This document shows, in pieces, positions 1,408-25,430 of a stretch of DNA of 64,000 nucleotides. The position numbers were made by a program, and so were the translations under genes. Under the pieces are notes generated by a model. It ran no database searches. It saw only the letters and a program-made list of their open reading frames with translations, and had not been told where the DNA came from. This DNA is from a virus. Location of the stretch: IMG/VR virus record IMGVR_UViG_3300037424_000665, positions 41-64,040 of that record; one strand, written 5' to 3'. Every line of letters starts with the position of its first letter. Within the stretch, counting starts at the first letter, position 1.

Positions 1408-1408
1408 A

Positions 1409-2052: not shown

Positions 2053-2083
2053 AACAGAAGCGGCGCAAGTAGAAGGGAAAGTA

Positions 2084-2242: not shown

Positions 2243-2256
2243 TAAAGGAGAATCCC

Positions 2257-2436: not shown

Positions 2437-2463
2437 GCGAACAACGCCAGAAGACATAGGCAC

Positions 2464-2553
2464 AGGCGGAGTAGCTACCGCCGAGTGCTATCACCACGCA
2501 GCCTGTGATAGAGGCCGTAGGGTCGAAAGACTTTGCGGCCTCTTTCTTTTGGC
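2464..2553 (+). ncRNA. Conserved three-hairpin element ending in a terminator (copy A)
   Basis: GGCGG-AGTAGCTA-CCGCC; CTATCAC/GTGATAG; GAGGCCGTAG..GAAA..TTGCGGCCTC plus T-tract; second copy at 61468-61555. Confidence 0.5.
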
Positions 2554-2571
2554 AATGAAGGAGTCAGGAAA

Positions 2572-7484: not shown

Positions 7485-7486
7485 GA

Positions 7487-7723
7487 ATGAAGATCGAAGT
7501 ACGATTGATACCCGACTTCGCGCGGGACTCAGAAAAAGAGATTGAGCACGAAATCGGCGTGTTGAATGATATTCTCGGTCATGATGCCGCACATTGCAGA
7601 GAAAAGACTGACGGAATCAGTGGGCCTCTCGTGAGGAACTATGCTTTGTGGACCGGCGATTTCTGGGAACTCTACAAGCGAATCAAGGACCGCATCTACC
7701 GGCGACTGGAGGCACAGAAGTGA
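7487..7723 (+). CDS. Hypothetical protein
   Basis: AGGAG upstream; 78 aa. Confidence 0.5.
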   Translation: MKIEVRLIPDFARDSEKEIEHEIGVLNDILGHDAAHCREKTDGISGPLVRNYALWTGDFWELYKRIKDRIYRRLEAQK

Positions 7724-7933
7724 AAGTCATCGACAAGCTGAAAAAAGTATGCGTTTCAGAACCATCCATTAACCGGCCCCGAACCAGGCGAGGGACCCGA
7801 AGCATATGGGGAAAGATGTCGGCAATGGGCAAGGGAACAATGTATGATTTTCAGTGGATACCATAAAGATGATGAACATTGCCGGTAAGCAGAAGATGTT
7901 GCCGCAAGCGCCGATGCAGACAGTGGGGGCGAC

Positions 7934-8152
7934 ATGATAGCGCAGGAAGTGATAGAACGGTGTCGCTCAGCGAAGCGTCTTATCCCCGTGGTCATTGAGG
8001 GTCAAGAGTATTATTTGGCGATCGCGCATCCTCGAATGTATTACTTGCTCAAGGTGGCGGCGGCCAAAGAGAAATACAGACACGAGCGATGGGTGGAGCG
8101 ATACAATCGTTGGCGGCGAAGCCACGGGGAGGGCGCAAACCCCAATGAGTGA
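7934..8152 (+). CDS. Hypothetical protein
   Basis: GGGGG RBS-like; ORF in operon order. Confidence 0.45.
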   Translation: MIAQEVIERCRSAKRLIPVVIEGQEYYLAIAHPRMYYLLKVAAAKEKYRHERWVERYNRWRRSHGEGANPNE

Positions 8153-8324
8153 TACTTGTGTAGTAATTTGTCTATCTCTGTGGCTGATCGTTGGCTTTGT
8201 GAGTTATGTATATGGAATGATCAAGTTTGATTGTGAATTTTATGGATTTGTCCATTTTGTTTTTTGGATTCTTCTGGGACCAATCGGATTGTTTATAAAT
8301 ATGAAAAATTGGAAAAATGAATGA
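8145..8324 (+). CDS. Small membrane protein (AT-rich insert)
   Basis: Two hydrophobic stretches; 5' end duplicates that of 8492 gene. Confidence 0.5.
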   Translation: MSDTCVVICLSLWLIVGFVSYVYGMIKFDCEFYGFVHFVFWILLGPIGLFINMKNWKNE

Positions 8325-8499
8325 TCGAAGACGACATCCATTATTTGATGATCAAGATGGCACGTGGACATATTTCGGAAAACAATATACCAGTTTAGAA
8401 CTTGATAAAAAATTACATCTATCAAAGCGATTGACAATCATTTCACATATTAAGGAGCGTCTTCAAAAGATAGAGAAGATGAAGCCATCCAATGAGTGA
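8317..8499 (+). CDS. Hypothetical protein (AT-rich insert)
   Basis: Overlapping start/stop with neighbours. Confidence 0.4.
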   Translation: MNDRRRHPLFDDQDGTWTYFGKQYTSLELDKKLHLSKRLTIISHIKERLQKIEKMKPSNE

Positions 8500-9172
8500 T
8501 ACCTGTGTCGTCAACTATTCCTCCGGCTGGTTCGTCAGGGGCCAGCAGCGATTGAAACAAGCCTGCCTCGACGTGGGCTACAAGGGGGATTTCCTGCTGT
8601 TCAACGACGAGAACCCCTTGAAGTGCCCGCCGCACAGCCAAGTGCCCTACGGCTTCAAGCCCTACGCGATGAAAGAGGCGCAGAAGCGAGGTTATCGGTT
8701 CATCTTATGGTGCGATTCGAGCGTGTACCCGGAAAGGCCCCTGGACGCCGTGTGGGCTCTGCTGCGCGAGCAAGGCTATATGTTCTTACAGTGCGGTCAC
8801 AACTGCGGAACGTGGTGCACCGACGTGGCGTTGCAAGTCCTTGGTATCGACAGGGAACTGGCTTTTACGTTACCACAACTCGTCGGCGGCTGTCAGGCCC
8901 TCGATCTTCAGAATGAGTTGGCGAGGAAGTATCTCGACCGATGGTTTGAATTGGCCAACGACGGTCTGAGCTTTCATGGTGACTGGACCAACGAACACGG
9001 GCAGGTCTCGAAAGCCCCCCGCGTCAAAGGACATCGCCACGACCAAGTTATCGGAAGCCTGATTGCCTATCAGTTGGGCATGACGGACTTCAAAGGAAAC
9101 TGGCTTATCTACGACGAGCGGGGCACAGTGCCGCGACGGCCGGAAATGATATTCGTGGTCAGGAGTGCATGA
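8492..9172 (+). CDS. GT-A nucleotide-diphospho-sugar transferase-like protein
   Basis: YGFKPYAM, ILWCDSS, HRHDQVIGSL. Confidence 0.7.
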   Translation: MSDTCVVNYSSGWFVRGQQRLKQACLDVGYKGDFLLFNDENPLKCPPHSQVPYGFKPYAMKEAQKRGYRFILWCDSSVYPERPLDAVWALLREQGYMFLQCGHNCGTWCTDVALQVLGIDRELAFTLPQLVGGCQALDLQNELARKYLDRWFELANDGLSFHGDWTNEHGQVSKAPRVKGHRHDQVIGSLIAYQLGMTDFKGNWLIYDERGTVPRRPEMIFVVRSA

Positions 9173-9440
9173 TATGCGCGGTCTCTTATTGGAAGTTAGC
9201 GTTCTTAATCCAGACGAATATGATCTTGAAACATTCTGCAAGGAATTGGTCGAATGCGCAACACGCCTCACTATCAATGTTGAGGCCCCATTTCGGGGAA
9301 CGACCATTCTTGCAACGCCTACAAGCACCTCAGAAGAGTTGGTAGCCAATTTCCGTAGGCGATTGGAGAAACACCGGGAAGAACAGAAGAATCTCGGCAT
9401 TTTCAGTATGGATGAACAAGTGAAATACAAAGGGATGTAG
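9165..9440 (+). CDS. Hypothetical protein
   Basis: AGGAG RBS, overlap with upstream stop. Confidence 0.45.
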   Translation: MHDMRGLLLEVSVLNPDEYDLETFCKELVECATRLTINVEAPFRGTTILATPTSTSEELVANFRRRLEKHREEQKNLGIFSMDEQVKYKGM

Positions 9441-9444
9441 TGTT

Positions 9445-10233
9445 ATGAGCGTTGCCCGCAAATTCCGCCGTCAGCATTTGTCTTCCACGCCTATCGGCAA
9501 GGAGCCGCCGGTCCTGATTGTCAGGCCGCATAAACAGGAGGGCTTTACCTGCGAGGCCACGAGCCAGTTCCTGTCCAAAGCCTTCAAGCGGGGCATCGCC
9601 GACTACAAGTGCATGGAAGCCCGGACGCCTGACGTCGCCCGGAATCTCGCCATCCTGGAGTTTCTCAGTAATCCCATACACGCCAAAAAGACGCACCTGT
9701 TCTTCCTGGATGACGATTCGACGCCCTGGAATGATTTTGTTATCGAAAGGCTCCTGAGCCTGGATAAGCCCGTCATTGCCGGCGTGACGCCTATCTTCAG
9801 GAAGAAAGACGCCATCGACTTCAAAAAGATTCGGATGCTGATGCTCGGCGTTGTTCAAAATGAACCTGCCCAGATGGATTTGTATTGGTCGCCTATCCTG
9901 ATGAAAGCCGGCCATTTGGAGCATATCGGTATCGACGAACTGCCCAAGACGCCGTTTGTGGCCCATCGCACGGGAGGTACGTGCCTGCTGATTCGCCGTG
10001 ACGTTCTGGAAAAGCTCAAGCCGCCGTATCAGAAATTCGAGTTCGACGAGCAGCAGATCAAGCTCCTGCGGTCAGAGGACATCTACTTCGCCGATCAGAT
10101 ACGGGAGGCTGGATTCCCTATCTGGATCGACCCCGAGAGCATTTGTCATCACTTTCACGTCCTGGATATTTTGGACATGTTCGCCATAGCGATTCAGGCC
10201 AAAGAGATGGGCAAAACAGGGGAAAAAAGATAA
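9445..10233 (+). CDS. GT-A glycosyltransferase-like protein
   Basis: ARN, THLFFLDDD, GGTCLLIRRDVLE, SEDIYF, ICHH. Confidence 0.8.
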   Translation: MSVARKFRRQHLSSTPIGKEPPVLIVRPHKQEGFTCEATSQFLSKAFKRGIADYKCMEARTPDVARNLAILEFLSNPIHAKKTHLFFLDDDSTPWNDFVIERLLSLDKPVIAGVTPIFRKKDAIDFKKIRMLMLGVVQNEPAQMDLYWSPILMKAGHLEHIGIDELPKTPFVAHRTGGTCLLIRRDVLEKLKPPYQKFEFDEQQIKLLRSEDIYFADQIREAGFPIWIDPESICHHFHVLDILDMFAIAIQAKEMGKTGEKR

Positions 10234-10620: not shown

Positions 10621-10786
10621 GCGCTTACGCAACCTGCGGCGGTCAACGGCAGGGCGTTACGGCAACGCAACATTGTGCCGGGTCGTTCACGACGCTGCGC
10701 GGTACAGCAGCCCGCAACGGCGACGGATTCGCCGGGTAACAGACGGCCAGATGTAACCCAGGCCGGGAAAAAGAAAGGGTAGCTCT

Positions 10787-11755
10787 ATGACAACTGAAAA
10801 TGAAGGTTTCGACGTGGAAAAGTTTGCTCAGGACGGACTGGATCAGGCCGGGATAAAGCCGGAAGAGACGACGGCAGACGATCAAGTGCAGCAGCAGCCC
10901 GCAGGCGTTGTGTCTAAAACCAACCAGGAACCGGCAGGGCCGGAACCCGATGGGGCCACGCCTCAAGAGGATGAACCTAAAGAGACACCAACCGATGCGG
11001 TCCAGGCAGCATTGAAGGTTACCGAAGAGCCTCCGAAAGCCGACGAACCCGAACCTGAAGTCGAATCGACGATTGCCGAGCTCCTGCCGAAAGCCGAGGA
11101 GCCTGAAGCCAAGCCCGGACCCAAAGTGCCGCTTGATGATCATATCAAGCTGCGCCAGCGGGCCCAGCAGGCCGAGCGCGAACGCGACGAGGCCCTGCAA
11201 AGGCTGGCGGCCACGACCCAGCAACAGACCCAAGAGGTCGAGCCGCTGGAGAAGTGGACGACTGAGAATCCTGAAGATGCTCAGATAAGTCCTCCGCCGG
11301 CGTCAGTCATGCTGGCACAGAGGAAATTCGAGCAGGCTCAAGGGCGAACCAGGGCCGAGGCGCAGCGCAGGGCCGATGAGGCCGAAGCGGGCCGCCGGCA
11401 GGCAATGGCAGGCATTCAAGCCAAAGCCTCGAAAGCTCAGGAGTCGGAAAAGTCCTTTCGGGCTTCTCACCCGGACTATACCAAGGTAACTAAGGCGGCC
11501 CTCAAAGCCAATTTGCTCAGCAAAGAGGAAAGAGACGCCGTCCTGGACGCCGAGAATCCCGGTCAGGAGCTTTACGACCTGGCAAAGGCCAAATTGACCG
11601 CCATCCAGGAAGGGCTGGGCATTACTACTCCCACAGCGGAACCGCAACCAAAACCAGCGGGCAACCAGACGCCGGCTACAGGGGCTCCCGGAGAAGAACC
11701 GGAATTGAGTGATGACGACATCTTCGACGAGGTCTTCAAAGACAAACCCCGATAG
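10787..11755 (+). CDS. Capsid scaffolding protein
   Basis: Acidic, low-complexity, coiled-coil; VPL..HIKLRQR; short acidic C-terminal helix; immediately upstream of capsid gene. Confidence 0.75.
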   Translation: MTTENEGFDVEKFAQDGLDQAGIKPEETTADDQVQQQPAGVVSKTNQEPAGPEPDGATPQEDEPKETPTDAVQAALKVTEEPPKADEPEPEVESTIAELLPKAEEPEAKPGPKVPLDDHIKLRQRAQQAERERDEALQRLAATTQQQTQEVEPLEKWTTENPEDAQISPPPASVMLAQRKFEQAQGRTRAEAQRRADEAEAGRRQAMAGIQAKASKAQESEKSFRASHPDYTKVTKAALKANLLSKEERDAVLDAENPGQELYDLAKAKLTAIQEGLGITTPTAEPQPKPAGNQTPATGAPGEEPELSDDDIFDEVFKDKPR

Positions 11756-11794
11756 TCCGTGTTCTGAGTGCTTGCTGGGGGAGTAACGAAAACA

Positions 11795-12988
11795 ATGGCA
11801 AGTACAACCTTTCAGCGAGGCTCGACACATACGAACCTCGTTCCTCAGAAGTGGTCCGCACAGGACTACAAATTCGCATTTGAGGCCAATCCTCTGGCCC
11901 AGTACATCGGGCCTGGGGACGGCATGGTCGTTCAAGTCAATAAGGATTTCACCAAGGAAAAAGGCGACAGGCTCACCTTCGGACTCCGCGCCTTGCTGTC
12001 CGGCGACGGTCAAACCGACGACGGAACTTACGCCAACAACTCCGAAGGCATGACGTTCTACGATATGAGCGTCGATCTCCATGAGCGAGGCCATTCCGTG
12101 GCGCTCTCGGGCAATATGACCGAGCAGGCGGCCTGGAAGAACCTGCGGCCCCAGGGGATGCAGGCACTGCGAGAGTGGGACGGTATGGTACAGTGCGCCG
12201 ACATTATCGCGGCCCTGTCCGGCCTGACCACCAAGAAGCACATCGCAGGCCGGATCACCGGTGCCAATGCCGTCAACGCGGCTGCGGCGCAGATCGGAAC
12301 CGTCAACCAGGTCAGTCTGACCAAAGGTGCGACGGCGACGCGATGGTTCGGCGGGGGCCAGAACTCCAGCGGAACCATTGCCAGGGTCGCTACCGACTCG
12401 GCGATCAACTCGACCTCCAATCACTTGTTCGGCACGGACGTTATCGAGTACCTCTGCCGAATGGCGAAAAAGACGGTCGATGGCTCCGGCAACGCGGTCA
12501 ATCCCATCCGGCCCATCATGGTCAATGGCGAGCCGTGGTATCTGATGCTCATCGACCTGCTGCAAAAGAAGCAGCTTCAGGCAGATACCAAGTGGAAGAA
12601 CGCTCTACAGAACGCCCTTCCGCGAGGGACCAAAGACCACTGGCTGTTCAACGGCGCCGACGGTCTCTGGAACCAGGTGGTCATCAAGAGCACCGACTGG
12701 CTGCATCGCCGGACGGGTGCGGGCGGCATTCTCGCTACGGAGTATTTCGACACCACCGGCGACGCCTGCGCCTCCGGCTTCACCGTGGCGCGTGGCTTGT
12801 TCCTCGGCGCTCAGGCGGCCTGCCTGGCGTGGGGAAAGGCCCCGACCTGGAAGACGGGTTACAGCGACCCGCCTCACGACACCAAGTACACGGTCCATAC
12901 GGATAAAATTTTTGGTGTCAAGAAATCCGTGTTCAATTCCGTGGAACTCGGCTGCATCGTCTGTGATACAGCGGTGATCGGGGATTGA
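11795..12988 (+). CDS. Major capsid protein (N4-gp56/DUF4043-like HK97 fold)
   Basis: KDFTKEKGDRLTF.L...LSGDG, IRPIMVNGE.WY, DTKW..A, LF.GADG.W, RGLFLGAQA...AWGK, G.KKSVFN. Confidence 0.85.
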   Translation: MASTTFQRGSTHTNLVPQKWSAQDYKFAFEANPLAQYIGPGDGMVVQVNKDFTKEKGDRLTFGLRALLSGDGQTDDGTYANNSEGMTFYDMSVDLHERGHSVALSGNMTEQAAWKNLRPQGMQALREWDGMVQCADIIAALSGLTTKKHIAGRITGANAVNAAAAQIGTVNQVSLTKGATATRWFGGGQNSSGTIARVATDSAINSTSNHLFGTDVIEYLCRMAKKTVDGSGNAVNPIRPIMVNGEPWYLMLIDLLQKKQLQADTKWKNALQNALPRGTKDHWLFNGADGLWNQVVIKSTDWLHRRTGAGGILATEYFDTTGDACASGFTVARGLFLGAQAACLAWGKAPTWKTGYSDPPHDTKYTVHTDKIFGVKKSVFNSVELGCIVCDTAVIGD

Positions 12989-14346: not shown

Positions 14347-15123
14347 ATGAGTAAAACCGACCCTATCGACCCCGCAGTTCCTGCGGGCTCGGAAGACCCG
14401 AAGTTAGGCGATAACAGAATCCGTGAGTTGGCGGCCGCCGTCGCGGAAATCCTGGCCGTCGATCATTACATTGGCACCAATGGCGGAGCCGGGACGGGAT
14501 ACAACGAGGACGCGGCAGGCGAGCACGCTAAGGTGACGATCCGCAACGGTTCGGCCCCGACGGCAGCGGCGGGCAAAGGATTTCTGTACGTCGTCTCAGG
14601 GGAATTGTACTACAAGGACCCCAGCGGCAACGTCATTCAACTGACCAGCGGCGGCATTCTCAACAGCCTCAATCTGACCGGCAACCAGACGGCGGCGGGC
14701 GTCAAGACGTTCTCGTCTCAGGCGGCTTTTGCGGCCGGCCTGACGGCGGCGGCGGCGATTATCAGCACACTAGTTACGGGTACGGCGCCTTTCACGGTGG
14801 CCTCGACGACGAAAGTGGCAAACCTCAATGCCGACCAGGTGGACGGCTTCCACGTGACGGCCCCCGACGGCACGCAAAGTTATACTATCGCCGGTGGTTT
14901 GATTCTCAAACAGGGCCAAGCCGCTTTTTCCGGCTCAGACCTTACGGTCACTTTTGGGGAGGCGTTTCCGACGGAATGTATCCGCGTGATTGCCTGTTTG
15001 AACGACACCGCATGGTCCACAAATTACGCGCCGAAGATCATCTCGAAGAGTGCAAGTAATTTCGTCGTCAGCATGGGTAATGCAACGAGTTTGAACATCG
15101 ACTGGATTGCGATTGGTAGATGA
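14347..15123 (+). CDS. Short tail fibre / virion appendage protein
   Basis: LTGNQTAAGVKTFSS, LNADQVDG, C-terminal GGLILKQG...VTFGEAFPT..WIAIGR (gp53-like fibre tip). Confidence 0.65.
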   Translation: MSKTDPIDPAVPAGSEDPKLGDNRIRELAAAVAEILAVDHYIGTNGGAGTGYNEDAAGEHAKVTIRNGSAPTAAAGKGFLYVVSGELYYKDPSGNVIQLTSGGILNSLNLTGNQTAAGVKTFSSQAAFAAGLTAAAAIISTLVTGTAPFTVASTTKVANLNADQVDGFHVTAPDGTQSYTIAGGLILKQGQAAFSGSDLTVTFGEAFPTECIRVIACLNDTAWSTNYAPKIISKSASNFVVSMGNATSLNIDWIAIGR

Positions 15124-16952
15124 AGCGATTTGCCATATACTCGCCGACTCTCGGCCTGCGTGAGGATTATCCGGGAATCCTCTTGCAGAAGGCCCTCTTG
15201 CCCGACGCGAACTACGTACAGGTCCGTTGGGGTGAAATCTGGAAGGCCAAGATGCGGACTTCGGAACTGCTCAGGACGATTCACGCCGTGGCCTCCGTCG
15301 ATACCTCGGCCAATACGGTGACTATCAGCGGCAACGTGGTTTCGATGTACCCCAACGGGGCCGGGATTACCCTCTACGATACCGACAACGACTACGAGAC
15401 CAGCTTTACGCTTTCTACGACGGCGGCCTATAGCTCAACCTCAACGATTCTTACCGTGACCGGCGACATCACCAGTACGACGCCGGCGGACTTCGTATTC
15501 CGCAATGACGACGTGGCCTCCAGTGATCCCGCGAGCGTCGATTTCCGCAAGGTCGGCTTCCCGGACGGCAATCCTGTTCTGGACTACCAGACGTTGACGC
15601 TCTCGGACGGCACGGAGCGGTTGTGCGGCTTTACGAAGGACCATATTTACTACTGGAATACCACTCTAACCGAATGGACTTTGCTCCATACCTGCGCCTC
15701 ATCCTGCACGTTCTGGTCCACGGCCAAGTACGGCGACAATCTCTGCGCGACGAACAACGTCGATAGGCCCGTCTATTGGGACGGCAATACGGCCAATACC
15801 TTTGAGAACATCGATACGCAGTACACCTCCGCGAGCGCCGATTACGTCGCCAAGGCCAAGTTCATTGCCAGCTATCATAACTACCTCTTTTTGGGCAACG
15901 TGGAGTTATCGAACGGCAGTCGGTATCAGAGCCACGTCTATTATTCCACTATCGGCGAGGGCCTGACGGCGGGCGGCTGGCAGCAACTTGCCACCAAAGA
16001 CGCCGGCTCAGCCTACGTAGCCGGGGACGGCGAGATCACCGGCGGCTTCGGCCACTGGCAGGGCTATCTGTGCATCTTCAAGAGGCGATCTATACGCAAA
16101 TGGTGGTTCGTCGGCCTATCCATTCCCTTCGAGCAATCGGAGCTCTCGCCGGACATCGGCTGCATTGCGCCGGGTTCCGTCGGCAACGACTGGGAAGGCG
16201 ACCTGTACTTCTACGGCACGGACAAGAGCTTTCACGGCATGGCGGCAGGCAACGTCAGCCAGGCCATCGACAAGACGGCAAGAGACATCAATCCCTCCCT
16301 GCTCGAAGGCATAAGATTCCTCGCCGTCGATGAATACCGGGAGCTTCGATGGTCCGTACCCTACGGCAACTCGGCGACGGCCAATAACAAGATCGTCGTC
16401 TATGTGCCGGGCGAACGACGGTGGGACTGTGATATGGATGTCGCGGTGACGGCCTTCGGAACCTATACGCAGCAATCGAACTGGACGTGGGACACCCTGC
16501 CGTTCTCGTCCTGGGACGAATGGGGGTGGGACTCCTGGGACGCCATCGAGGCGTCGTCGGACTTCCCGGTGGATATTGCCGGCGACGCCAACGGTTATAC
16601 CTACGCCCTGCACGGCGGCTATCTCGATGACGGTTCAACCTACGAAAGCTCGTTCGTCCTGACGACGGACCTCGCCGACAAGCAGGCCTTGCCCTATTAC
16701 AAGAGGGTGACGCAGTTGTTCGTCTATGCGAACAAAGAGGGTACGGGCACGCTGACGCTCGAAGTCAAACGCGATAACGAGGCGAACTGGAAGTCGTTGG
16801 GCTCCGTCAATCTGACCGGGACGGAAGACGTGTTGCGCCAGCGCTTGGCCGTTGACTTCACCGGCCGGCATTTCCTCATCAGGATAACGGGGACCAGTGC
16901 CTTTCGTTTTATCGGCGTCGAGATAGAGTTTAACGTGGAGGGACATCGCTGA
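15120..16952 (+). CDS. Tail nozzle / packaged-DNA stabilisation protein (P22 gp10 / T7 gp12-like)
   Basis: Beta-propeller-like repeats, GCIAPGSV, C-terminal GRHFLIRI; position in tail module. Confidence 0.65.
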   Translation: MKRFAIYSPTLGLREDYPGILLQKALLPDANYVQVRWGEIWKAKMRTSELLRTIHAVASVDTSANTVTISGNVVSMYPNGAGITLYDTDNDYETSFTLSTTAAYSSTSTILTVTGDITSTTPADFVFRNDDVASSDPASVDFRKVGFPDGNPVLDYQTLTLSDGTERLCGFTKDHIYYWNTTLTEWTLLHTCASSCTFWSTAKYGDNLCATNNVDRPVYWDGNTANTFENIDTQYTSASADYVAKAKFIASYHNYLFLGNVELSNGSRYQSHVYYSTIGEGLTAGGWQQLATKDAGSAYVAGDGEITGGFGHWQGYLCIFKRRSIRKWWFVGLSIPFEQSELSPDIGCIAPGSVGNDWEGDLYFYGTDKSFHGMAAGNVSQAIDKTARDINPSLLEGIRFLAVDEYRELRWSVPYGNSATANNKIVVYVPGERRWDCDMDVAVTAFGTYTQQSNWTWDTLPFSSWDEWGWDSWDAIEASSDFPVDIAGDANGYTYALHGGYLDDGSTYESSFVLTTDLADKQALPYYKRVTQLFVYANKEGTGTLTLEVKRDNEANWKSLGSVNLTGTEDVLRQRLAVDFTGRHFLIRITGTSAFRFIGVEIEFNVEGHR

Positions 16953-17266: not shown

Positions 17267-20082
17267 AGTATGCTTTCTATATTCTGTTGATGGTGTTGGC
17301 GGTTGCCGGCGGGGTGGCAATGGGAAGCTACGCTCCGCGCACGCACGTTGACTACGCTCCCTTTGACCAACGCCTCCCGCGTCAATTAGTGATGGTGGGA
17401 GATGAGGGCAAGATCGTACTCTACAACCAGGCCGGGGACGGCAACTGGTACTGGTGGTCGGTTCGCGCCTCGAACGACATGGTGACGGACGTCAATTACA
17501 TTTGGCCAAGCGTCGTCGGCGATGTCAATTCGGCCTTGTCGATTTACTCTATCGCTGGGAATGAGGTAACGCTTCGCTGGGGTGGATTCAGTGACGCCAA
17601 CGGATTGTTGCCCAGTAAGACGCCGTGGAACGTGATGTTCGTCGGCGCCGACGGCTATCCTTTGACCGAAGACCCAAACAACTTCACGTACTATCAGCCC
17701 GAGACGGCCTTTGGCTTGGGACTCGACAATATCGCCGAAAGCACATACGCCAACAACTACATCCAGGTCTATTCCCTTCTGGACTTCGAGCCGAACCTGT
17801 TCAACGTCACGATAGGCCGGGGCAGCGACGATACGGCCACCGGGCCGAACAACGTCACGATAGGGCATGGCGCTGGCGACGCCCTTGATGAGGGCTACGA
17901 GAATACCCTGGGGGGCAACTACGCGGGCCGCTATCTGATAGACTCGAACGACAACACCGGTTGGGGCTATGCGGTCTTGGGTGGGGAATCCAGCACGCCG
18001 GGCACGGCCTACACGCAGTACGTCGTTGGGATATATCCGAATCCAGCCAGCAACAAAATCGCGGCAATGGTTACGACGAACAACACCATCGTGACAAGCT
18101 GGGGAACGAACGGCTATTTCACTTACTATAGCGCCGAAGGAAGCGACGGACCCGAATACACCAGAGTGATACACCAACTCTCAGATGGGAGGATTTTGCT
18201 TGGTACGGATGGATTTAGGATTGACGCTCCAAACGGCGACCCCAATTGCTATATAGCAACATTGATAATGATAAATGCCGATGGGACTCTTGACACGACT
18301 TGGGGGCACAATGGCTTTTTTGGGCAACTCCAAGGCGTGGCATGGTACAGCAATCCGAATGCGATTCTTGAAGATAATGATGGGAATTTTCATATCTTCG
18401 GTCAAGTCGCAGCATTCGGCGGCGGTTATTACAAACTCTCGTCCGCAGGTGTATTCATATCGGGCTTGAAAGATACAAATTACTCAGTTCTTTATGCCTT
18501 CAATGGTGCCTGCTGGGCCGATGATGCAAAAACAAGGATCATCGCAGTTGGCACGCCAAACCAGATTTTCAACGGTGTGGGTTATACGTCCTGTAATGTT
18601 TCAGCTATCGATCCGGCTACAGGAACAAGAGACGACACCTGGACGGGCAATGTCAGTATCACTGGTACGGCGAAATACGGGGCGGAGGCTCCGACCTTAC
18701 TGTCTTTGTACTCGATAAACCGGATGAGCGATGACGGATTTGTGACCTATGAAAACGCTGGAAGCCCATCGTATCTGCACAAATTCATTGCCGATGGCAG
18801 TGCTTATGACACAGACTGGGGTACTGCTGGTAAGCTCCAGATGGGCATCTATAACATAAACATGCGCAGCAATTGTGTCATTCAGGATAGCGACACGATT
18901 TACATGTACACGCTCAACGATGCAAGCAAGGTCAGAATCAACAATGTCAATGGTGCTACAGGCGTTGTCACATCCTATTTCGATACGACGGTAAGTGCGG
19001 GCAGTTATGTGAGCATGGCCAAGATCAACGATTCTCTGTTTTTGGGACGCACGAACACACCGGCGCTGCAAGTTGAGGAATGGACGACCGCTCCGGCATA
19101 CGTCACCGGCATAGACGTTGGAGCATCTTCTGTCTGGTGGATTATGCCGGATTCAAGCACTCAGCTTCCCGGCGACGACTTCCACAACGCCGCCGCGTTC
19201 GGGGCCTATGCTTTGGGCAATCTCAAGACGGGCGGGGATAGTTCGCTGGGCCTGGGAACTTACGCGGGGCGGCACAACGAGACCGACCCCAACCGTTTCT
19301 TTTTGGACAATCTCGACCGCACGGACCTCAGTGGCGAGCAGACCAAAGGCATGATGTACGGCTACTTCGCCGACGATCCAAACGACCAGTGGCTCACGCT
19401 GAACGTCGGGGAGCTGAACCTGCCGATAGGCCGGTTCGACGTGAACGATGTCAACGTGGCGGGGACGCTGACCTTGCAGGGGCAGACGGCTTCGCGGCTC
19501 TTAGCAACGGACGGCTCGAAGAACGTCGTCTCGACGGACCTGGTGAGCTGGGTAGCGGCCACGGCGGATGAGACGACGGTAGCCGACGATGGGGACGGCA
19601 CGATAACGATAGGGATTGCCGACCCTTTGATTGTGGGCAAGGGCGGAACGGGCGCAGCAACATTGACGGATCACAGCCTCTTAGTGGGCTCAGGGACGGA
19701 TGCCATCACGCCTTTGGGCGCAGCGACGAACGGGCAGATACCCATAGGCTCGACGGGGGCCGACCCGGTTCTGGCGACTCTGACGGGCACGGCGAATCAG
19801 GTCAACGTGACAAACGAGGCGGGAACGGTAACGCTTTCGGCGCCGCAGGATATCGACCCCAATTCTTCGCCGAGTTTCGTGAATCTCCTATTGACCGGCT
19901 ATGTCGAGTTGACGGAACTTTCGGCGGACCCTACCAAGCCGTCCGAAGGCCAAATGATTATCTGGCTTTCGGATGGCACAGGATTCGGGGACGATGGCGA
20001 TGTTTGCATAGCAACTACGGCCTTCGGTGTGACAAGAAGAGCGATTTTATTTGATGCGAGCATGGGAGATGTATGGCCCTGA
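17263..20082 (+). CDS. Large tail-fibre/adhesin-like protein with N-terminal signal peptide, YadA-like repeats and inserted delta-60-like beta-propeller
   Basis: MKYAFYILLMVLAVAGGVAMG; NVTIG..AG/NT..G..A repeats; DG.LD.TWG repeats; fibre-like C-terminus. Confidence 0.6.
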   Translation: MKYAFYILLMVLAVAGGVAMGSYAPRTHVDYAPFDQRLPRQLVMVGDEGKIVLYNQAGDGNWYWWSVRASNDMVTDVNYIWPSVVGDVNSALSIYSIAGNEVTLRWGGFSDANGLLPSKTPWNVMFVGADGYPLTEDPNNFTYYQPETAFGLGLDNIAESTYANNYIQVYSLLDFEPNLFNVTIGRGSDDTATGPNNVTIGHGAGDALDEGYENTLGGNYAGRYLIDSNDNTGWGYAVLGGESSTPGTAYTQYVVGIYPNPASNKIAAMVTTNNTIVTSWGTNGYFTYYSAEGSDGPEYTRVIHQLSDGRILLGTDGFRIDAPNGDPNCYIATLIMINADGTLDTTWGHNGFFGQLQGVAWYSNPNAILEDNDGNFHIFGQVAAFGGGYYKLSSAGVFISGLKDTNYSVLYAFNGACWADDAKTRIIAVGTPNQIFNGVGYTSCNVSAIDPATGTRDDTWTGNVSITGTAKYGAEAPTLLSLYSINRMSDDGFVTYENAGSPSYLHKFIADGSAYDTDWGTAGKLQMGIYNINMRSNCVIQDSDTIYMYTLNDASKVRINNVNGATGVVTSYFDTTVSAGSYVSMAKINDSLFLGRTNTPALQVEEWTTAPAYVTGIDVGASSVWWIMPDSSTQLPGDDFHNAAAFGAYALGNLKTGGDSSLGLGTYAGRHNETDPNRFFLDNLDRTDLSGEQTKGMMYGYFADDPNDQWLTLNVGELNLPIGRFDVNDVNVAGTLTLQGQTASRLLATDGSKNVVSTDLVSWVAATADETTVADDGDGTITIGIADPLIVGKGGTGAATLTDHSLLVGSGTDAITPLGAATNGQIPIGSTGADPVLATLTGTANQVNVTNEAGTVTLSAPQDIDPNSSPSFVNLLLTGYVELTELSADPTKPSEGQMIIWLSDGTGFGDDGDVCIATTAFGVTRRAILFDASMGDVWP

Positions 20083-22901
20083 ATAGCAATAATAGTGTGA
20101 GTGTTTTAATTGCGGCGCGCAACGAACCCTATCTCGGCCAGACCATTGCCGACGTGCTGGCCAAGGCGCGTGGGGATATTGAAGTCATCGTCGTGCTGGA
20201 CGCCTACTGGCCGGAGCATCTTCCTCCTGAATACAGCGACCATGAGCGGGTCACGATCATCCATCCCGGCCGCAACATCGGCCAGCGGCCCGCCGTCAAC
20301 GAGGCCGCCCGCATCGCCAAGGGCAAGTATATCTTCAAGCTCGATGCGCACTGCATGGTCGATGAAGGCTTCGACGTGAAGCTGGCCGCCGACTGCGAGT
20401 ACGACTGGACGGTGATTCCCCGAATGTACCAGTTGGATGCCGAGCACTGGAAGCCGAAGCTGGGCAAGAAAACGGACTTCATGTTCTTCCGTGCGCCGGA
20501 CGCCGACGAGCATCCCTTTCGCATCGACTACTACGATGGACGGATTGCACACAAGTTCTGCGAAGAGTACCGGGCCTACAAGAACGCCACATGGCGGCAG
20601 GGGGATATTTGCGACACCATGACCTGCATCGGGGCGGGATGGTTCATGCACCGGGACCGCTTCTGGGAGCTGGGCGGCATGGACGAAGAGCACGGCCATT
20701 GGGGACAGATGGGCGTGGAGCTCTCCTGTAAGACGTGGCTATCCGGGGGGCGAATGGTCGTCAACAAAAAGACGTGGTTCGCGCACCTGTGGAGGGGGCA
20801 CGCGCCGTGGAAACTGACGCAGAAGCAGGTGGATAAGGCCAGGGAATACTCGAAAGACCTCTGGCTCAGCGGCAAGTGGCCGTTGCAGAAGAGGCCGCTG
20901 TCATGGCTCATCGAGAAATTTGCACCCGTCCCGACGTGGGCAGACTATCAGTTCAATGAACCCAAAACGAAAGGAGAACCCATTAACCCTCAAAACACAG
21001 GTGATTTGACCCTGCTCTACTACACAGCGAACCGGATTGATGAAACATTCAGAGATAAGGTGATTGCGCAGTTGCAGTATGCCTCTCCGAATACACTAGT
21101 CATCACTGTCTCACAGAAACCGATGGGCAGTGATGACGATATAGGTTACAACATCTGCGTCGGTGAAATAGGGGCATCCCTCCAGAACATCTACAAGCAG
21201 GTTCTTGCAGGACTGCGGGAAGTCAAGACCGAGTATGTCGCCCTGGTCGAGGATGATTGCCTCTATGTGCCGGAGCACTTCACATTCCGGCCTACGCATA
21301 TCGCCTACAATCTCAATCGCTGGCTGCTGCACGCTGATAGCGAGCACGTCTTTTCCTACCGAAGGCGTCCGATTCTCTCGCAGTGCATCGCTCCGACGAA
21401 ACTCTTGTTGGAATGTCTGCAACAGCGCGAGGGCAAGGATATCCCCAAGAAGTATTCCGGCGAGCCGGGCCTGTTCGAGGGCAAGCTGGGATTGAAGGAA
21501 TATCCCTATGAGACGTTCGAGACCAAAGAGCCGAACGTCGTTGTCTGCCATAACAAGAACACGTCGGGCCGCAAGTATCTGGGCAAGGACGCCGAGCCGC
21601 GAAGCGAGTTGCCGCCCTGGGGACGCGCTTGGGATTTGCTTATGGCGCTCGGACTTATTGAAGGGCGGGATAATTCTTCAACACCAAGCATTTCGTCGGG
21701 AACTATGGAAGACGAAACGAATGAGGAATCACACGACAAAGAAGATGAGGAGCAAAACATGGCCAAGTTCGGCAGGGGCTCGTGGAAGCGCTGGCAGCAC
21801 TCGTATATCGGCAGCATCATCTTCGGTATGGACGAGATCATGGGACAGCTCATGAACTTCGCCGACCGCAGACGACCGGGCAGGGCGGAGCGAAGGATGA
21901 AAACGCTGCCGCCGTTCGTAGAAAGAATCGCCAACCAAGAACTGAGTTCTCCCTTTGAAGAACAGCAACTCCGTGATGATCCGTGGTTCGCTTACCTGTG
22001 TGAGCTCTACCCAACGTGGCGGAAATCCAAACGAGAGGCCAGAGTGCTTCAAATCATGCGGGAAACTGTCAAACTCTTTCACGACATCAAGGAAAATGGC
22101 CTCAAGTCGCCCCTCGATATGTGGCGTGAGGGTAAGGACAGGCTCATTCTGCATCGCGGCTGGCGCAGACTTATCATCATGCACGAACTTCACAAGCGGG
22201 GTCTTCGGGACTTCTCCCGCGTGCCTGTGCGGGTGTTCAAGAGCAAAGCAATCTTCCAGAAGTACGCACCATCGCCGAAGTGGGCCGAGGGGCCTGTCGA
22301 TGACAATTCCATTCACGGCCTCGCTATGAAGCAGTTCTGCGAGAGGGGCATCTATGCCACGGATAAATACTGGGTACACGGTTATATTCGGCAGTACGAC
22401 CGGCACTTTGCGCACCTGCGAGACAAGCCGGTGAAGCTTCTGGAGATCGGCGTCTTTCGCGGGGCGTCGCTGCTTCTGTGGAAAGAGGCATTTCCAAAAG
22501 GTCAGATTTTCGGCCTCGATAAGAATACGGCGATCTGGCAGAAGTTCCTCAAGGGCCAGCAGCGAATTCACGTCTTTGTCGGCAAGCAGGAAGATGAGTC
22601 ATTCCTGAAGGCTCAAGTCATTCCCGCTGGGCCTTACGACATTATCGTGGATGATGGAGGGCACACGCCGGAAGAGCAGTTGGCGAGCTTCAATCAGTTG
22701 TGGCCTCATCTTGCGCCGGGTGGTATTTACGTCATCGAGGACATGCACGGCAACTACTGGGAGAAGCGAGCCAAAAACGGCCCGCTGATGGCGGAGCGTA
22801 TCAAGGCCATGATTGACGAAACTGTGGGGACAAATGACTGCCTCGATTATCAGTCTTTGGCAGTCTATTACAACATCGCGTTCATCGAGAAGAACCGCTA
22901 A
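20073..22901 (+). CDS. Multidomain enzyme: ppGalNAc-T (GT27)-like GT-A, second GT-A, ParB-like segment, sugar O-methyltransferase
   Basis: LDAHC, GGMDEEHGHWGQMGVELSCKTWLSGG, AHLWR; VEDDCLY; IKENGLKSPL...HRGWRRL; TDK..HGY...YDRHF...LLEIGV.RGASL..WK..FP. Confidence 0.8.
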   Translation: MALNSNNSVSVLIAARNEPYLGQTIADVLAKARGDIEVIVVLDAYWPEHLPPEYSDHERVTIIHPGRNIGQRPAVNEAARIAKGKYIFKLDAHCMVDEGFDVKLAADCEYDWTVIPRMYQLDAEHWKPKLGKKTDFMFFRAPDADEHPFRIDYYDGRIAHKFCEEYRAYKNATWRQGDICDTMTCIGAGWFMHRDRFWELGGMDEEHGHWGQMGVELSCKTWLSGGRMVVNKKTWFAHLWRGHAPWKLTQKQVDKAREYSKDLWLSGKWPLQKRPLSWLIEKFAPVPTWADYQFNEPKTKGEPINPQNTGDLTLLYYTANRIDETFRDKVIAQLQYASPNTLVITVSQKPMGSDDDIGYNICVGEIGASLQNIYKQVLAGLREVKTEYVALVEDDCLYVPEHFTFRPTHIAYNLNRWLLHADSEHVFSYRRRPILSQCIAPTKLLLECLQQREGKDIPKKYSGEPGLFEGKLGLKEYPYETFETKEPNVVVCHNKNTSGRKYLGKDAEPRSELPPWGRAWDLLMALGLIEGRDNSSTPSISSGTMEDETNEESHDKEDEEQNMAKFGRGSWKRWQHSYIGSIIFGMDEIMGQLMNFADRRRPGRAERRMKTLPPFVERIANQELSSPFEEQQLRDDPWFAYLCELYPTWRKSKREARVLQIMRETVKLFHDIKENGLKSPLDMWREGKDRLILHRGWRRLIIMHELHKRGLRDFSRVPVRVFKSKAIFQKYAPSPKWAEGPVDDNSIHGLAMKQFCERGIYATDKYWVHGYIRQYDRHFAHLRDKPVKLLEIGVFRGASLLLWKEAFPKGQIFGLDKNTAIWQKFLKGQQRIHVFVGKQEDESFLKAQVIPAGPYDIIVDDGGHTPEEQLASFNQLWPHLAPGGIYVIEDMHGNYWEKRAKNGPLMAERIKAMIDETVGTNDCLDYQSLAVYYNIAFIEKNR

Positions 22902-25430
22902 ATGGCGACGACAGGGGCAAAATATCCGACTTTAGGCACGACGACGGCAGAGTTGCCCTACGATGATTTCGCCTGGCAGACGCCGACGAATATCTACGGG
23001 GATGAGGGCAACAACGCCTACGTCGATGATAATGCCTTCGATAGCGGAAGCTACACCCAAGTCCTCAAGGCATCCGGTTTCGATTTCTCGGCCATTCCCG
23101 ATGGGGCGGAGATTCTCGGCGTTACCGTCAAGATCGAGGCGCACTATACCGTGGGCGCTGCGAAGCTTTCACTGGCCCAGCTTCTCGACGTGAACGGCGC
23201 GAAGGTCGGCACGAATCTCTGCGCAACGCCGGTGGCCCTGACGGTGACAACCCCGACCGTCATCACCAGAGGAGCGGCGGATTCGCTCTGGGGCAACTCT
23301 CTGACGGCGGCCTGGGTCAAAGACCCCGACTTCGGCGTGGCCCTGGGCATCGACGCGACCGGCAACAACTCCAACGTCTATATCGACTACGTGACGATGG
23401 AAGTGACTTACGTGGGAGTTTCGCCTTCGGTTAGCCCGTCTATCAGTCCTTCTGGTTCGCCGTCCGTAAGTCCTTCTGGCAGCCCTTCGGTCTCGCCGTC
23501 TGTCAGCCCGTCAATATCTCCGTCAGTTAGTCCGTCCGCGTCGCCATCCATGAGCGCGACACCTTCGGTCTCACCATCCATAAGTCCTTCGGCCTCGCCC
23601 TCACCGTCGGTCAGCCCGGCTCCCGGCCAGAACTGGTTCATGGATGACTCAAGTTGTATAGCCGTTTGGAACCTCGAATCCGGGGCATTGACCGTCGATT
23701 CCAAAGGCACGAACACGCTGACAAATTATGGTGTCACTTCTGATATTTCAGATTACAAGCAAGGTGCTGGAAGCGGTGTTTTTGAGGCAGTCAACGGCGA
23801 TCACTTTTATATTTCTGATACTGATTTGGATTCCGGATTTCCCGGCAAAGATGGTGAAACGAATCGAAATTTTACATTCTGTTTTTGGTTCAAGCCTGCA
23901 TCGGCTAATATTTCTCGGTATGTGTTTTTAAAGCAGGGTGCATTAGAGACAGACAAGTCGTATGGTTTGTATTATTCGACCTTTAAGCAACTGTCTCTCA
24001 TGTCCTCTATGGATGGAGATGCTTGGCAATTTTTAAGCGCCTCATCCACGTACACAATAGAGCCTGGCACTTGGTATCATTGTGCATTGTGGGCAAATGT
24101 TGCGACAGGTGCTTGGGGTATCCGAATACACAATAGTACAGAACTTGTCACGTCACAGGATAAAACGGGCGTTGGCTCATATTGGATTGGACCAAGTGAG
24201 TTTTATCTTGCGTGGGTAGCTTCACCAATAGGTATAGATGGCAAGCTCGATGAAGTCGTCGTTTTCAATCGCGTGCTGAGCATCGATGAGATTGACGATA
24301 TTTGGATGGGTGAATTCGGCAAGGTGACGCCCTCCATCAGCCCCTCCGTTACGCCCTCCGTCTCACCGAGTGTTACTCCGTCTGTGTCTCCGAGCCTGAG
24401 TCCCTCGGCCAGCCCCAGCGCATCAGCAACGCCCTCGGTCAGCCCAAGCATTTCTCCGTCGGCGTCCCCGTCCGTGAGTCCGTCCGTCAGTCCATCGGCG
24501 TCGCCAAGTGCCAGCGCAACACCATCGGTCAGTCCTTCTATAAGTCCGAGCGCCTCGCCATCCGCATCGGTATCGCCCAGCGCTTCGCCGTCGATTAGCC
24601 CGTCGGCGTCCCCATCCATTTCCGCGACGCCTTCGATCAGCCCGAGTGCCAGCCCGAGTATTTCGCCTTCGGCCTCCCCCAGTCTTTCGCCTTCTATAAG
24701 CCCTTCGCTGTCGCCCAGCATCAGCCCAAGCGCTTCGCCCTCAATTTCCCCAAGCGCAAGCCCTTCGGCCAGTGCTACGCCGAGCGTCTCACCTTCGGTA
24801 AGCCCGTCGGCGTCACCCAGCGCCAGTGCTACACCGTCTGTATCTCCGAGTGTAAGTCCCTCGCTCAGTCCCAGTGCGAGTCCGAGCATTTCACCGAGTA
24901 TCAGTCCTTCAGTGAGTCCTTCGGCGTCGCCTTCAATCTCAGTCAGTCCAAGCGTTTCACCATCGGGAAGTCCTTCGGCAACACCGAGTACATCCCCGTC
25001 GGCGAGTCCCAGCGCGAGCGCAACTCCGTCTGTTTCACCCAGTTTATCTCCCAGTGCATCGCCGTCTGCGTCCGCTACGCCTTCGGTATCACCATCCGGC
25101 AGTCCCAGTGTTAGCCCTTCGATTTCTCCGAGTGTCTCGCCCTCTGGAAGTCCAAGCATAAGCCCATCGGTTTCACCATCCGCGTCACCCAGTGTTTCTC
25201 CGTCTATCTCGCCGAGCGCTTCGCCGTCATTTTCCGTCAGTCCTTCCATGAGTCCCAGCGGTTCGGCCAGCGTATCTCCATCTGGAACGCCGAGTGCATC
25301 ACCCTCGGCTTCCGCAAGTCCGAGTCCGGGACCGGCAACGATGTTGATTGTTCATTTTATAGAACCCGTAACAACAGGTCAAGTTATTATGTTTGATGGT
25401 CAATATTGGACCAATGAAGATATTCCATAA
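22902..25430 (+). CDS. Mucin-like Ser/Pro-repeat virion protein with LamG/ConA-like domain
   Basis: Two (S/T)PS(V/I/A/L) tracts flanking a LamG-like block (FTFCFWFKP, WYHCAL, GKLDEVVVFNRVLS..EI). Confidence 0.8.
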   Translation: MATTGAKYPTLGTTTAELPYDDFAWQTPTNIYGDEGNNAYVDDNAFDSGSYTQVLKASGFDFSAIPDGAEILGVTVKIEAHYTVGAAKLSLAQLLDVNGAKVGTNLCATPVALTVTTPTVITRGAADSLWGNSLTAAWVKDPDFGVALGIDATGNNSNVYIDYVTMEVTYVGVSPSVSPSISPSGSPSVSPSGSPSVSPSVSPSISPSVSPSASPSMSATPSVSPSISPSASPSPSVSPAPGQNWFMDDSSCIAVWNLESGALTVDSKGTNTLTNYGVTSDISDYKQGAGSGVFEAVNGDHFYISDTDLDSGFPGKDGETNRNFTFCFWFKPASANISRYVFLKQGALETDKSYGLYYSTFKQLSLMSSMDGDAWQFLSASSTYTIEPGTWYHCALWANVATGAWGIRIHNSTELVTSQDKTGVGSYWIGPSEFYLAWVASPIGIDGKLDEVVVFNRVLSIDEIDDIWMGEFGKVTPSISPSVTPSVSPSVTPSVSPSLSPSASPSASATPSVSPSISPSASPSVSPSVSPSASPSASATPSVSPSISPSASPSASVSPSASPSISPSASPSISATPSISPSASPSISPSASPSLSPSISPSLSPSISPSASPSISPSASPSASATPSVSPSVSPSASPSASATPSVSPSVSPSLSPSASPSISPSISPSVSPSASPSISVSPSVSPSGSPSATPSTSPSASPSASATPSVSPSLSPSASPSASATPSVSPSGSPSVSPSISPSVSPSGSPSISPSVSPSASPSVSPSISPSASPSFSVSPSMSPSGSASVSPSGTPSASPSASASPSPGPATMLIVHFIEPVTTGQVIMFDGQYWTNEDIP
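23421..23622 (+). repeat. SPSx tetrapeptide tract 1
   Basis: About 16 units, synonymous codons scrambled. Confidence 0.9.
24327..25329 (+). repeat. SPSx tetrapeptide tract 2
   Basis: About 80 units with periodic SASAT variants. Confidence 0.9.

Follow-up and report, generated by a model that had tools for sequence, protein, structure and literature searches.

A four-module viral polypeptide predicted to initiate, extend and methyl-cap O-linked glycans and carrying a ParB/Srx-fold module

Phage virion glycosylation, multi-domain glycan enzymes and fusions of ParB-fold domains to methyltransferases are all already known. According to PMC11600133, citing Freeman 2023, mycobacteriophage capsids and tail tubes are glycosylated by adjacent glycosyltransferase (GT) and O-methyltransferase genes. 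Several glycan activities may also share one polypeptide, as in K4CP and PmHS2, each of which joins two GT-A domains, and WsaE of the Geobacillus S-layer glycan, in which a methyltransferase is joined to two rhamnosyltransferases, is a precedent for fused methyl capping. Here we analyse a 942-amino-acid (aa) protein (P0001), a predicted four-domain glycosylation and methylation enzyme encoded by an open reading frame (ORF; 942 codons, 942 aa, open throughout) at 20073..22901 on the + strand of a 64,000-nucleotide stretch of viral DNA (IMG/VR record IMGVR_UViG_3300037424_000665, positions 41 to 64,040; the window). A sequence-only reading had proposed that this protein combines a GT27-like domain, a second GT-A domain, a ParB/sulfiredoxin (Srx)-like segment and a sugar O-methyltransferase, and that it initiates, extends, possibly phosphorylates and methyl-caps a glycan. 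We consider it fairly probable, from homology, conserved motifs and gene context, that it would be a cytoplasmic phage enzyme decorating virion proteins with short O-linked glycans late in infection, its four domains (D1 to D4) having the roles proposed below. The predicted initiation, extension and methyl-capping steps are well supported by homology and conserved motifs.

The glycosyltransferase and methyltransferase modules

The AlphaFold2 (AF2) model, built with an alignment of 46 homologues, has a mean predicted local distance difference test score (pLDDT) of 87.8 and is parsed into four confident blocks (residues 5-295, 309-531, 572-745 and 746-942), with low-confidence linkers at residues 296-308 and 532-569. 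The full-length predicted template modelling score (pTM) is 0.46, and the mutual orientation of the four domains is therefore undefined. The modules and motifs lie as follows.

20085..20957, + strand: D1 (residues 5-295), GT-A domain resembling polypeptide N-acetylgalactosamine (GalNAc)-transferases (GT27-like), from structure and profile matches
20343..20351, + strand: DxH motif of D1, D91-A-H93, invariant and aligned to FLDAHCE of GalNAc-T1
20997..21665, + strand: D2 (residues 309-531), predicted divergent second GT-A domain, from an ESM Atlas match, weak Pfam GT2 matches and topology
21249..21257, + strand: ExD of D2, E393-D394-D395, putative metal/donor motif at the end of strand beta-4, from conservation
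21666..21785, + strand: disordered acidic linker (residues 532-571), pLDDT below 50 at 532-569, 11 Asp or Glu among 40 residues
21786..22307, + strand: D3 (residues 572-745), predicted ParB/Srx fold with a helical insert of ~90 aa, from profile and structure searches
22098..22112, + strand: Box I (C-motif) loop GLKSP of D3, G676 to P680, from conservation
22155..22169, + strand: Box II (P-motif) R-G-W-R-R of D3, with R695, G696, R698 and R699, from conservation
22308..22898, + strand: D4 (residues 746-942), core of a MycE/TylE/SpnK-type metal-dependent sugar O-methyltransferase, from phmmer, profile and VIA-align
22650..22664, + strand: DDGGH of D4, predicted metal ligand D861 and predicted catalytic base H864, invariant and aligned to DDGSH of MycE
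22737..22742, + strand: E889-D890 of D4 (IEDM), predicted metal ligands, invariant and matching YVIEDM of MycE

All the motifs quoted in the sequence-only reading are in place, VEDDCLY at residues 391-397, LFHDIKENGLKSPL at 667-680, LHRGWRRL at 693-700 and the TDK/HGY/YDRHF/LLEIGV series at 763-794, and its division of the polypeptide into four modules agrees with the parsed model. A search of 5.8 billion proteins returned more than 100 metagenomic homologues, 40-78% identical over 99% of the length; in the alignment of 46 homologues, on which all full-length conservation figures are based, the invariant columns are D91, H93, G676, P680, R695, G696, R698, R699, D860, D861, H864, E889 and D890. 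The conservation of the quoted motifs far exceeds chance expectation. The acidic linker between D2 and D3 differs in length across homologues.

The structural relatives of D1 are the polypeptide GalNAc-transferases. VIA-align superposed D1 on GalNAc-T2, T10, T12 and T1 at Z 26-27 (root mean square deviation, rmsd, 2.8; 269 aa aligned; 20-23% identity), and 30+ GalNAc-T entries scored Z 24-27, the next GT-A proteins reaching 19 at most. By sequence, too, the best solved relatives of D1 are these enzymes: besides a Pfam GT2 match (3.8e-17), its profile matches GalNAc-T1 at 4.8e-13, with DAH, WG..E..W.xGG and H238 in register, and the profile alignment pairs KLDAHC with FLDAHCE, WGQMGVELSCKTWLSGG with WGGENLEISFRIWQCGG and WFAHLW with HVGHVFR. 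The invariant residues are D91, H93, W210, G211, E216, W222, G225, G226 and H238. The domain begins at residue 5 and is followed by D2, with no ricin-type lectin domain, type II membrane anchor or stem. Based on the structure, profile and motif matches, we conclude that D1 is a GT27-like catalytic domain lacking both lectin domain and membrane anchor, as expected from the sequence-only reading. D1 would act as a retaining GT-A enzyme, placing the first sugar on Ser or Thr of Ser/Pro-rich tracts, with the adjacent SPSx-repeat LamG fibre protein as the prime acceptor. This neighbour is the contextual hint at a Ser/Thr peptide acceptor, as in the GalNAc-transferases, whose donor is UDP-GalNAc.

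D2 is more divergent. In the ESM Atlas, residues 309-531 matched a cluster of 245-aa Bacillota GT2 proteins, all members of which carry PF00535, with template modelling (TM) scores of 0.70/0.65 over 195 aa. The D2 model has a beta-alpha-beta topology in which the strand YVALVEDD ends in the ExD motif. Across 22 diverse D2 sequences, N320, E393, D395 and H402 do not vary, and ExD and H402 are conserved at 90% or more in the 46 full-length homologues. PF00535 weakly matches 9 of the 22 D2 relatives (best E 0.0052); the D2 of the window itself has no Pfam match and is detected by no curated model. The alignments of K4CP and PmHS2 extend over model residues 4-500 and take in D1 and D2 together. 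These data favour the proposed second GT-A domain, which would be metal-dependent and add a further sugar. A recent duplication of D1 was considered as the origin of D2 and discarded, because hhalign of D2 against D1 gave a probability of 0.4% and aligned the first beta-alpha-beta unit only. D2 also exists as stand-alone proteins of 217-228 aa in viruses.

D4 was readily assigned. It matches MycE (3ssm, 1.7e-25) and 8ia9 (8.8e-20) by phmmer, with a profile match at 3.8e-39, and VIA-align superposed model residues 743-942 on MycE residues 160-373 at Z 25 (rmsd 2.2-2.3 Å, 188 residues, 34-39% identity), in line with the MycE/TylE-type enzyme that had been read from its motifs. Pfam Methyltransf_24 and PHROG 21658 also match. 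The DDGGH and YVIEDM motifs of D4 align to DDGSH and YVIEDM of MycE, and D860, D861, H864, E889 and D890 are invariant; their counterparts in MycE are D275, E303 and D304, reported to be Mg ligands, and H278, reported to be the base (Akey et al. 2011). As a Mg-dependent enzyme, D4 would place a methyl group on a hydroxyl of the outer sugar, which is probably a 6-deoxyhexose supplied by the sugar island of the phage, and so cap the glycan. Since D4 is a MycE-type O-methyltransferase, we rejected the view of the protein as a DNA methyltransferase joined to ParB in an anti-restriction-type fusion. In bacteria, relatives of D4 consist of the core alone or have two domains in the manner of MycE. 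When the whole protein was searched by tblastn against 50,697 deposited phage records, D4 alone found matches, in mycobacteriophages and one cyanophage; the best of them in this collection was Microcystis phage Mel-JY01 (41%).

The ParB/Srx-fold module

To D3, the segment between D2 and D4, the sequence-only reading had given a ParB/Srx fold. With a D3 alignment of 15 sequences from viral loci, the top 11 profile matches in the Protein Data Bank (PDB) were all ParB, Noc, KorB, PadC or sulfiredoxin (E 0.008-0.15), and the RGxRR motif (G696-x-R698-R699) aligned to GERR of ParB and GCHR of Srx. PF02195 matches 6 of the 15 sequences (best E 8e-4); single-sequence Pfam scans of the middle segments (222, 194 and 103 aa) gave a chance Khk match only. 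Among 1.84 billion representative proteins, the D3 profile retrieved 673 at E of 1e-3 or below, and it reached ParB_N proteins that score above the PF02195 gathering threshold (P0236, P0241 and P0249) at library-wide E of 1e-8 to 1e-6. A separate AF2 model of D3 (pLDDT 90.5, pTM 0.85), compared by VIA-align with 48,161 PDB chains, had Arabidopsis Srx (Z 6.1, all 89 target residues aligned), pNOB8 ParB-N (5.6), PadC (5.2) and SspE (5.1) as its top four matches, followed lower in the list by human Srx, KorB, Spo0J, Osa, SbnI and SerK. Foldseek lists for this model from the PDB and BFVD consist almost entirely of ParB/Srx proteins, and in the ESM Atlas the D3 model matched a cluster named 'ParB/Sulfiredoxin domain' at TM 0.60/0.55. 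Taken together, profile search, VIA-align, Foldseek and ESM Atlas are four independent lines that agree and rank ParB/Srx first, and D3 as modelled has the ParB/Srx fold that had been predicted.

A 386-column Foldseek alignment to 3ssn had also raised the possibility that D3 is the MycE auxiliary domain. This candidate was dropped, as the rigid alignment covers the methyltransferase domain only; MycE is absent from the D3 profile and fold lists, an absence that does not exclude similarity. In a separate observation, the D3 profile also touches ParB-fold domains in very large polyvalent proteins (P0229, 1536 aa; P0230; P0237). P0229 carries GNAT and ART-PolyVal domains in Pfam, which are typical of phage/plasmid conflict systems and unrelated to glycosylation.

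Residue conservation in D3 was scored on 96 representatives sharing 50% identity or less. Near-universal positions are limited to G676 (98-100%), P680 (96-100%), G696 (100%), R698 (94-98%), R699 (98-100%), L706 and two Tyr, and none of the 96 representatives' conserved positions is acidic, Cys, His, Ser or Thr. In ParB-CTPase-fold proteins, Box I is a base-contacting helix and loop and Box II the phosphate-contacting GxxR; the GLLQS and GLQEP loops described there are of the same type as GLKSP of D3, and some ParB-methyltransferase fusions bind ATP, a Box II Arg-to-Ala substitution abolishing binding (Kaljevic et al., bioRxiv 10.1101/2025.10.10.680097). D3 has no Box III, helix-turn-helix (HTH), C-terminal dimerisation domain, ParA-binding motif or ENxxR-like conserved motif; after its VPVRVF strand a single helix leads to D4. 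Among orphan ParB-fold proteins, lack of Box III is common (bioRxiv 10.1101/2025.10.10.680097). Given its Box I loop and GxRR Box II, D3 would most likely bind a nucleoside triphosphate (NTP) or another phosphorylated ligand. Since it lacks a conserved acidic or catalytic residue, a phosphate- or NTP-binding accessory role is likelier than phosphorylation: D3 is probably accessory to the tailoring and transfer domains, through oligomerisation, gating or substrate positioning, and probably not a kinase.

The company that D3 keeps was followed in 80 related viral loci with flanks of up to 10 kb on each side. The D1 family as a whole occurs in 559 viral contigs, with at least 579 loci on genome contigs confirmed. 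D1-D2 alone is the commonest arrangement in the 80 viral loci; others are D1-D2-D3-D4 and D2 upstream of D1. A D1-D3-D4 fusion is followed by D2 as the next gene in one locus (L057), and D3-D4 forms separate ORFs of 347-397 aa in three others (L015, L056 and L039). On phage contigs with a large terminase gene (L083-L085), the four modules are unfused and adjacent, in the order D2, methyltransferase, D3, GT2-D1; at L083:3732-7158 these are a D2 of 229 aa, a TylF/Methyltransf_24 methyltransferase of 192 aa, a D3 of ~162-174 aa and a GT2_2 plus D1 protein of 566 aa. On a Sedimentisphaerales contig from a metagenome-assembled genome (MAG), at L090:8001-11620, D1 is followed by a D1-D3 fusion and then by D2, a 251-aa ORF with no Pfam or PDB match that is 30% identical to D2 of the window; no methyltransferase was detected in the fetched stretch of this locus. 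These arrangements show that the four modules form one functional set, recurring fused in various orders or unfused. D3 further exists as stand-alone proteins of 130-180 aa (47 representative clusters), and was found in none of the 50 fetched bacterial genome loci holding a D4-like or MycE-like gene. It had no tblastn match in the 50,697 deposited phage records, and viral contigs searched with the stand-alone D3 proteins P0132 and P0182 gave no relatives.

L057 holds two copies of D3. Over L057:10016-14507 the order is a GT2/D1-like gene, D3 (10753-11337), a Sulfotransfer_4 ORF (11313-11843), the D1-D3-D4 fusion and the stand-alone D2, so that the stand-alone D3 lies directly upstream of the sulfotransferase ORF (Pfam 3.9e-33; PDB sulfotransferases 7e-14), which overlaps its end. 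This pairing hints at sulfated phage glycans. From the D1-D3, stand-alone and sulfotransferase settings, we conclude that D3 recurs across D1-type cassettes and that D4 is not its only partner.

As a separate observation, many D1(-D2) relatives (L087-L113) lie on contigs binned to MAGs of Patescibacteria, the candidate phyla radiation (CPR), including Woesebacteria, Zambryskibacteria, Saccharibacteria and Peribacteria, and could be genes of CPR phages or cellular genes.

These settings bear on two other views of D3. The first takes it for a ligand-free, degenerate ParB/Srx scaffold in place of the MycE auxiliary domain, serving oligomerisation or contact with the acceptor polypeptide. In fusions D3 always stands directly N-terminal to D4, the auxiliary-domain position, and with 340-370 aa, stand-alone D3-D4 proteins are close to MycE in length; the lack of Box III, the ~90-aa helical insert with conserved Tyr residues that is unique to the D3 family, and the many orphan ParB-fold proteins that bound no NTP in vitro (bioRxiv 10.1101/2025.10.10.680097) fit the same view. 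However, the strongest selection in D3 (94-100% among the 96 representatives) falls on Gly and Pro of Box I and GxRR of Box II, which is unexpected for a pure scaffold; moreover, unfused copies of D3 exist, as do copies next to enzymes other than D4. We regard a ligand-free scaffold as rather unlikely.

The second view takes up the phosphorylation step suggested by the sequence-only reading and makes D3 an active phosphotransferase, similar to SerK, SbnI or sulfiredoxin, acting on the glycan or the acceptor and leaving a phosphate there or, with D4, a methyl-phosphate cap, as WbdD does for E. coli O9a. The fold with its invariant GxRR phosphate-binding motif and the extra R695 and R720 would suit such an activity; Srx, the top VIA-align match, is an ATP-dependent phosphotransferase on a protein substrate, SbnI and SerK are among the structural matches, and WbdD is a precedent for glycan termination by a kinase and a methyltransferase (PMC3482155). 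The sulfotransferase neighbour in L057, too, places D3 alongside enzymes that add anionic or small caps. By contrast, no conserved D3 residue is fit to be a base, nucleophile or Mg ligand, and where Srx has its catalytic Cys, D3 is variable (W697 here). SerK and SbnI score lower (Z 3.6-3.9 over the core) than Srx and ParB (5.2-6.1); D3 has neither a conserved acidic residue to match their catalytic Glu nor their C-terminal substrate-binding domain. D4 belongs to the hydroxyl-methylating, metal-dependent MycE class, unrelated to the WbdD methyltransferase, and therefore needs no phosphate acceptor; and in L090 D3 is fused to a D1-type domain with no methyltransferase detected nearby. Because of the missing candidate catalytic residue, the weaker SerK/SbnI matches and the class of D4, we rate phosphotransfer by D3 as decidedly unlikely and retain the ligand-binding accessory module described above.

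More speculatively, D3 might represent a new phage-specific branch of the ParB-CTPase fold in protein glycosylation, working either as an NTP-driven phosphotransferase that gives phospho- or methyl-phospho-capped O-glycans or as an NTP-gated dimerisation clamp on the SPSx polypeptide. We hold this to be doubtful; were it true, an NTP-gated clamp would let the GT and methyltransferase domains decorate the SPSx polypeptide processively.

Genomic setting and candidate acceptor

The record is a 64,140-bp virus rated complete by CheckV; the window covers nearly all of it and carries all its long ORFs on the + strand. The gene of the four-module protein lies in a late structural block, downstream of the major head protein (11768-12988) and a virion structural protein (15120-16952); the ORF before it (957 aa) ends beyond this gene's ATG, and the ATG of the next gene directly adjoins its stop. 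A 1891-aa protein is encoded downstream in the same block. The front of the genome (window 1-10233), which precedes the major head gene, encodes a pyruvyl transferase, a GT2, a GT with an FkbM methyltransferase, a GT9-like protein, a GDP-mannose-dehydratase/epimerase-type enzyme (nucleotide-sugar 4,6-dehydratase/epimerase) and a radical SAM protein. As the phage carries sugar-island genes of its own, activated and deoxy sugars could be phage-made. Megablast of 20 kb of the window against deposited phages gave zero matches; the nearest genomic relatives are MAG contigs of Sedimentisphaerales, Pirellulales and the PVC group. The gene that follows encodes the candidate acceptor.

22902..25430, + strand: neighbouring 842-aa SPSx/LamG protein, candidate acceptor, from its translation and Pfam Laminin_G_3 (3.6e-14)

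This protein is laid out as an N-terminal domain, an SPSx tract, LamG and a very long SPSx tract. It has ~79 SPS units, 26% Ser and 13% Pro, and 442 aa lie within Ser/Thr/Pro (S/T/P)-rich windows. Its 170-aa N-terminal domain had no convincing relative, with only a ClbL amidase match at E 8.7e-4 and no PHROG match. ORFs containing 100 or more S/T/P-rich residues' worth of sequence (aa) were found at 60 of the 80 related viral loci (6.6 per 100 kb) vs 5 of 50 bacterial loci with a D4-like gene only (1.4 per 100 kb). With the SPSx neighbour and this frequency, the initiating, extending and methyl-capping parts of the glycan role first read from the sequence were strengthened, whereas its phosphorylation part found no support, given the lack of a conserved acidic or nucleophilic D3 residue and the weak SerK/SbnI matches.

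Could the acceptor be something other than a virion protein? Host envelope glycans or lipid-linked intermediates (in seroconversion or superinfection exclusion) and phage DNA bases are candidates: O-antigen or DNA is commonly modified by phage GTs (for example bioRxiv 10.1101/2023.12.21.572611), phage ParB-fold fusions are mostly with DNA methyltransferases (bioRxiv 10.1101/2025.10.10.680097), and GT2-plus-Methyltransf_24 fusions also occur in Myxococcota and Bacteroidota genomes. However, among solved structures the nearest to D1 are all polypeptide GalNAc-transferases, 7-8 Z units above all other GT-A folds, and the enzymes to which D4 is 34-39% identical methylate sugar hydroxyls and are not DNA methyltransferases. 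The gene stands among structural genes and is directly followed by that of an extreme SPSx-repeat protein, S/T/P-rich ORFs are present at 75% of the related viral loci, and the translation and AF2 model contain no obvious membrane segment (no dedicated predictor was run). An acceptor of this other kind therefore seems highly improbable, and glycosylation of virion proteins is the reading that we prefer.

Several points nevertheless weigh against that reading. Where the GalNAc-Ts have WGGEN, which we take to be their sugar-contacting motif (GalNAc-T2 contacts), the aligned D1 sequence is WGQMG, so that the D1 donor may differ from UDP-GalNAc. The GT-A assignment of D2 draws on a predicted structure and a motif, with no significant sequence match to a solved GT, and the profile of 22 D2 sequences gave chance matches only, to major histocompatibility complex (MHC) class II, among PDB sequences. 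The window's own D3 reaches no Pfam threshold in a single-sequence scan, and the D3 fold scores are modest (Z of at most 6.1, Foldseek E of at least 0.0025), individually so because the first strand is set apart from the core by the ~90-residue helical insert. What suggests a ligand for D3 is its conserved Gly, Pro and Arg only, and in vitro 17 of 28 purified ParB-fold proteins failed to bind any NTP (bioRxiv 10.1101/2025.10.10.680097). Finally, the control for the frequency of S/T/P-rich ORFs is bacterial, not phage.

Comparison with known systems

Among phages, the mycobacteriophage cassettes (Corndog/cluster O, Che8 and Omega gp15-17) come closest. As in the window, GT and O-methyltransferase genes stand beside head or tail genes (Omega gp16/gp17 adjoin the head gene), and their methyltransferases are 29-36% identical to D4. 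In contrast to the fused protein, the mycobacteriophage enzymes are separate small proteins, such as Omega gp17 with 181 aa and a methyltransferase core only. Their cassettes have no ParB/Srx module, and tblastn against the 50,697 deposited phage records found no relative of D1, D2 or D3. The candidate acceptor, an SPSx-repeat fibre-like protein, is likewise unlike those of the mycobacteriophage cassettes.

The whole catalytic domain of the animal and apicomplexan GT27 GalNAc-Ts (2ffu, T2; 1xhb, T1; 2d7i, T10) superposes on D1, with DxH, the Gal/GalNAc-T motif and the Mn-binding His in register; unlike them, D1 is viral and by our proposal cytoplasmic, is only ~20% identical, has no lectin domain or anchor and reads WGQMG for WGGEN. 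In MycE/TylE/SpnK (3ssm, 8ia9), the full methyltransferase domain aligns to D4, and the DDGxH and IED motifs are identical or one residue off. MycE has an N-terminal auxiliary domain (1-159) for tetramerisation and substrate, whereas the ParB/Srx-fold D3 takes that position here, and its substrate is a macrolide sugar, as opposed to what is presumably a protein-linked glycan.

D3 shares its fold, the Box I helix and loop and the Box II GxxR with sulfiredoxin, PadC and the orphan ParB-CTPase-fold fusions (Kaljevic et al., bioRxiv 10.1101/2025.10.10.680097). It differs from these fusions in falling below PF02195 detection in this protein, in its ~90-aa insert and in having no Box III, HTH or dimerisation domain. 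The reported phage ParB fusions are to DNA-type methyltransferases (N6_N4, Methyltransf_23), whereas D3 belongs to glycosylation cassettes; a term search of the main text of that survey did not find 'glycosyl' (bioRxiv 10.1101/2025.10.10.680097). Compared with the multi-domain glycan enzymes, K4CP, PmHS2, WsaE and WbdD are built from other GT or methyltransferase families, with no GT27-like initiator and no ParB/Srx domain. WbdD, a kinase joined to a methyltransferase (PMC3482155), is a precedent for methyl capping, but its kinase is protein-kinase-like, not ParB/Srx.

In the literature searched and in the ParB-fusion survey, we did not find described the combination seen here, of a phage GT27-like initiator, the entire initiate-extend-cap series in one fusion and a divergent ParB/Srx module with intact Box I and Box II. 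An initiating enzyme related to the animal mucin-type polypeptide GalNAc-transferases would thus be found in a phage, in whole pathways fused into single polypeptides. The versatility of the ParB-CTPase fold would extend to glycan tailoring, by a module that travels with the cassettes and keeps its nucleotide-contacting motifs. One enzyme and one SPSx-repeat substrate could then serve as a system for studying processive O-glycosylation and for making defined methylated glycoproteins.

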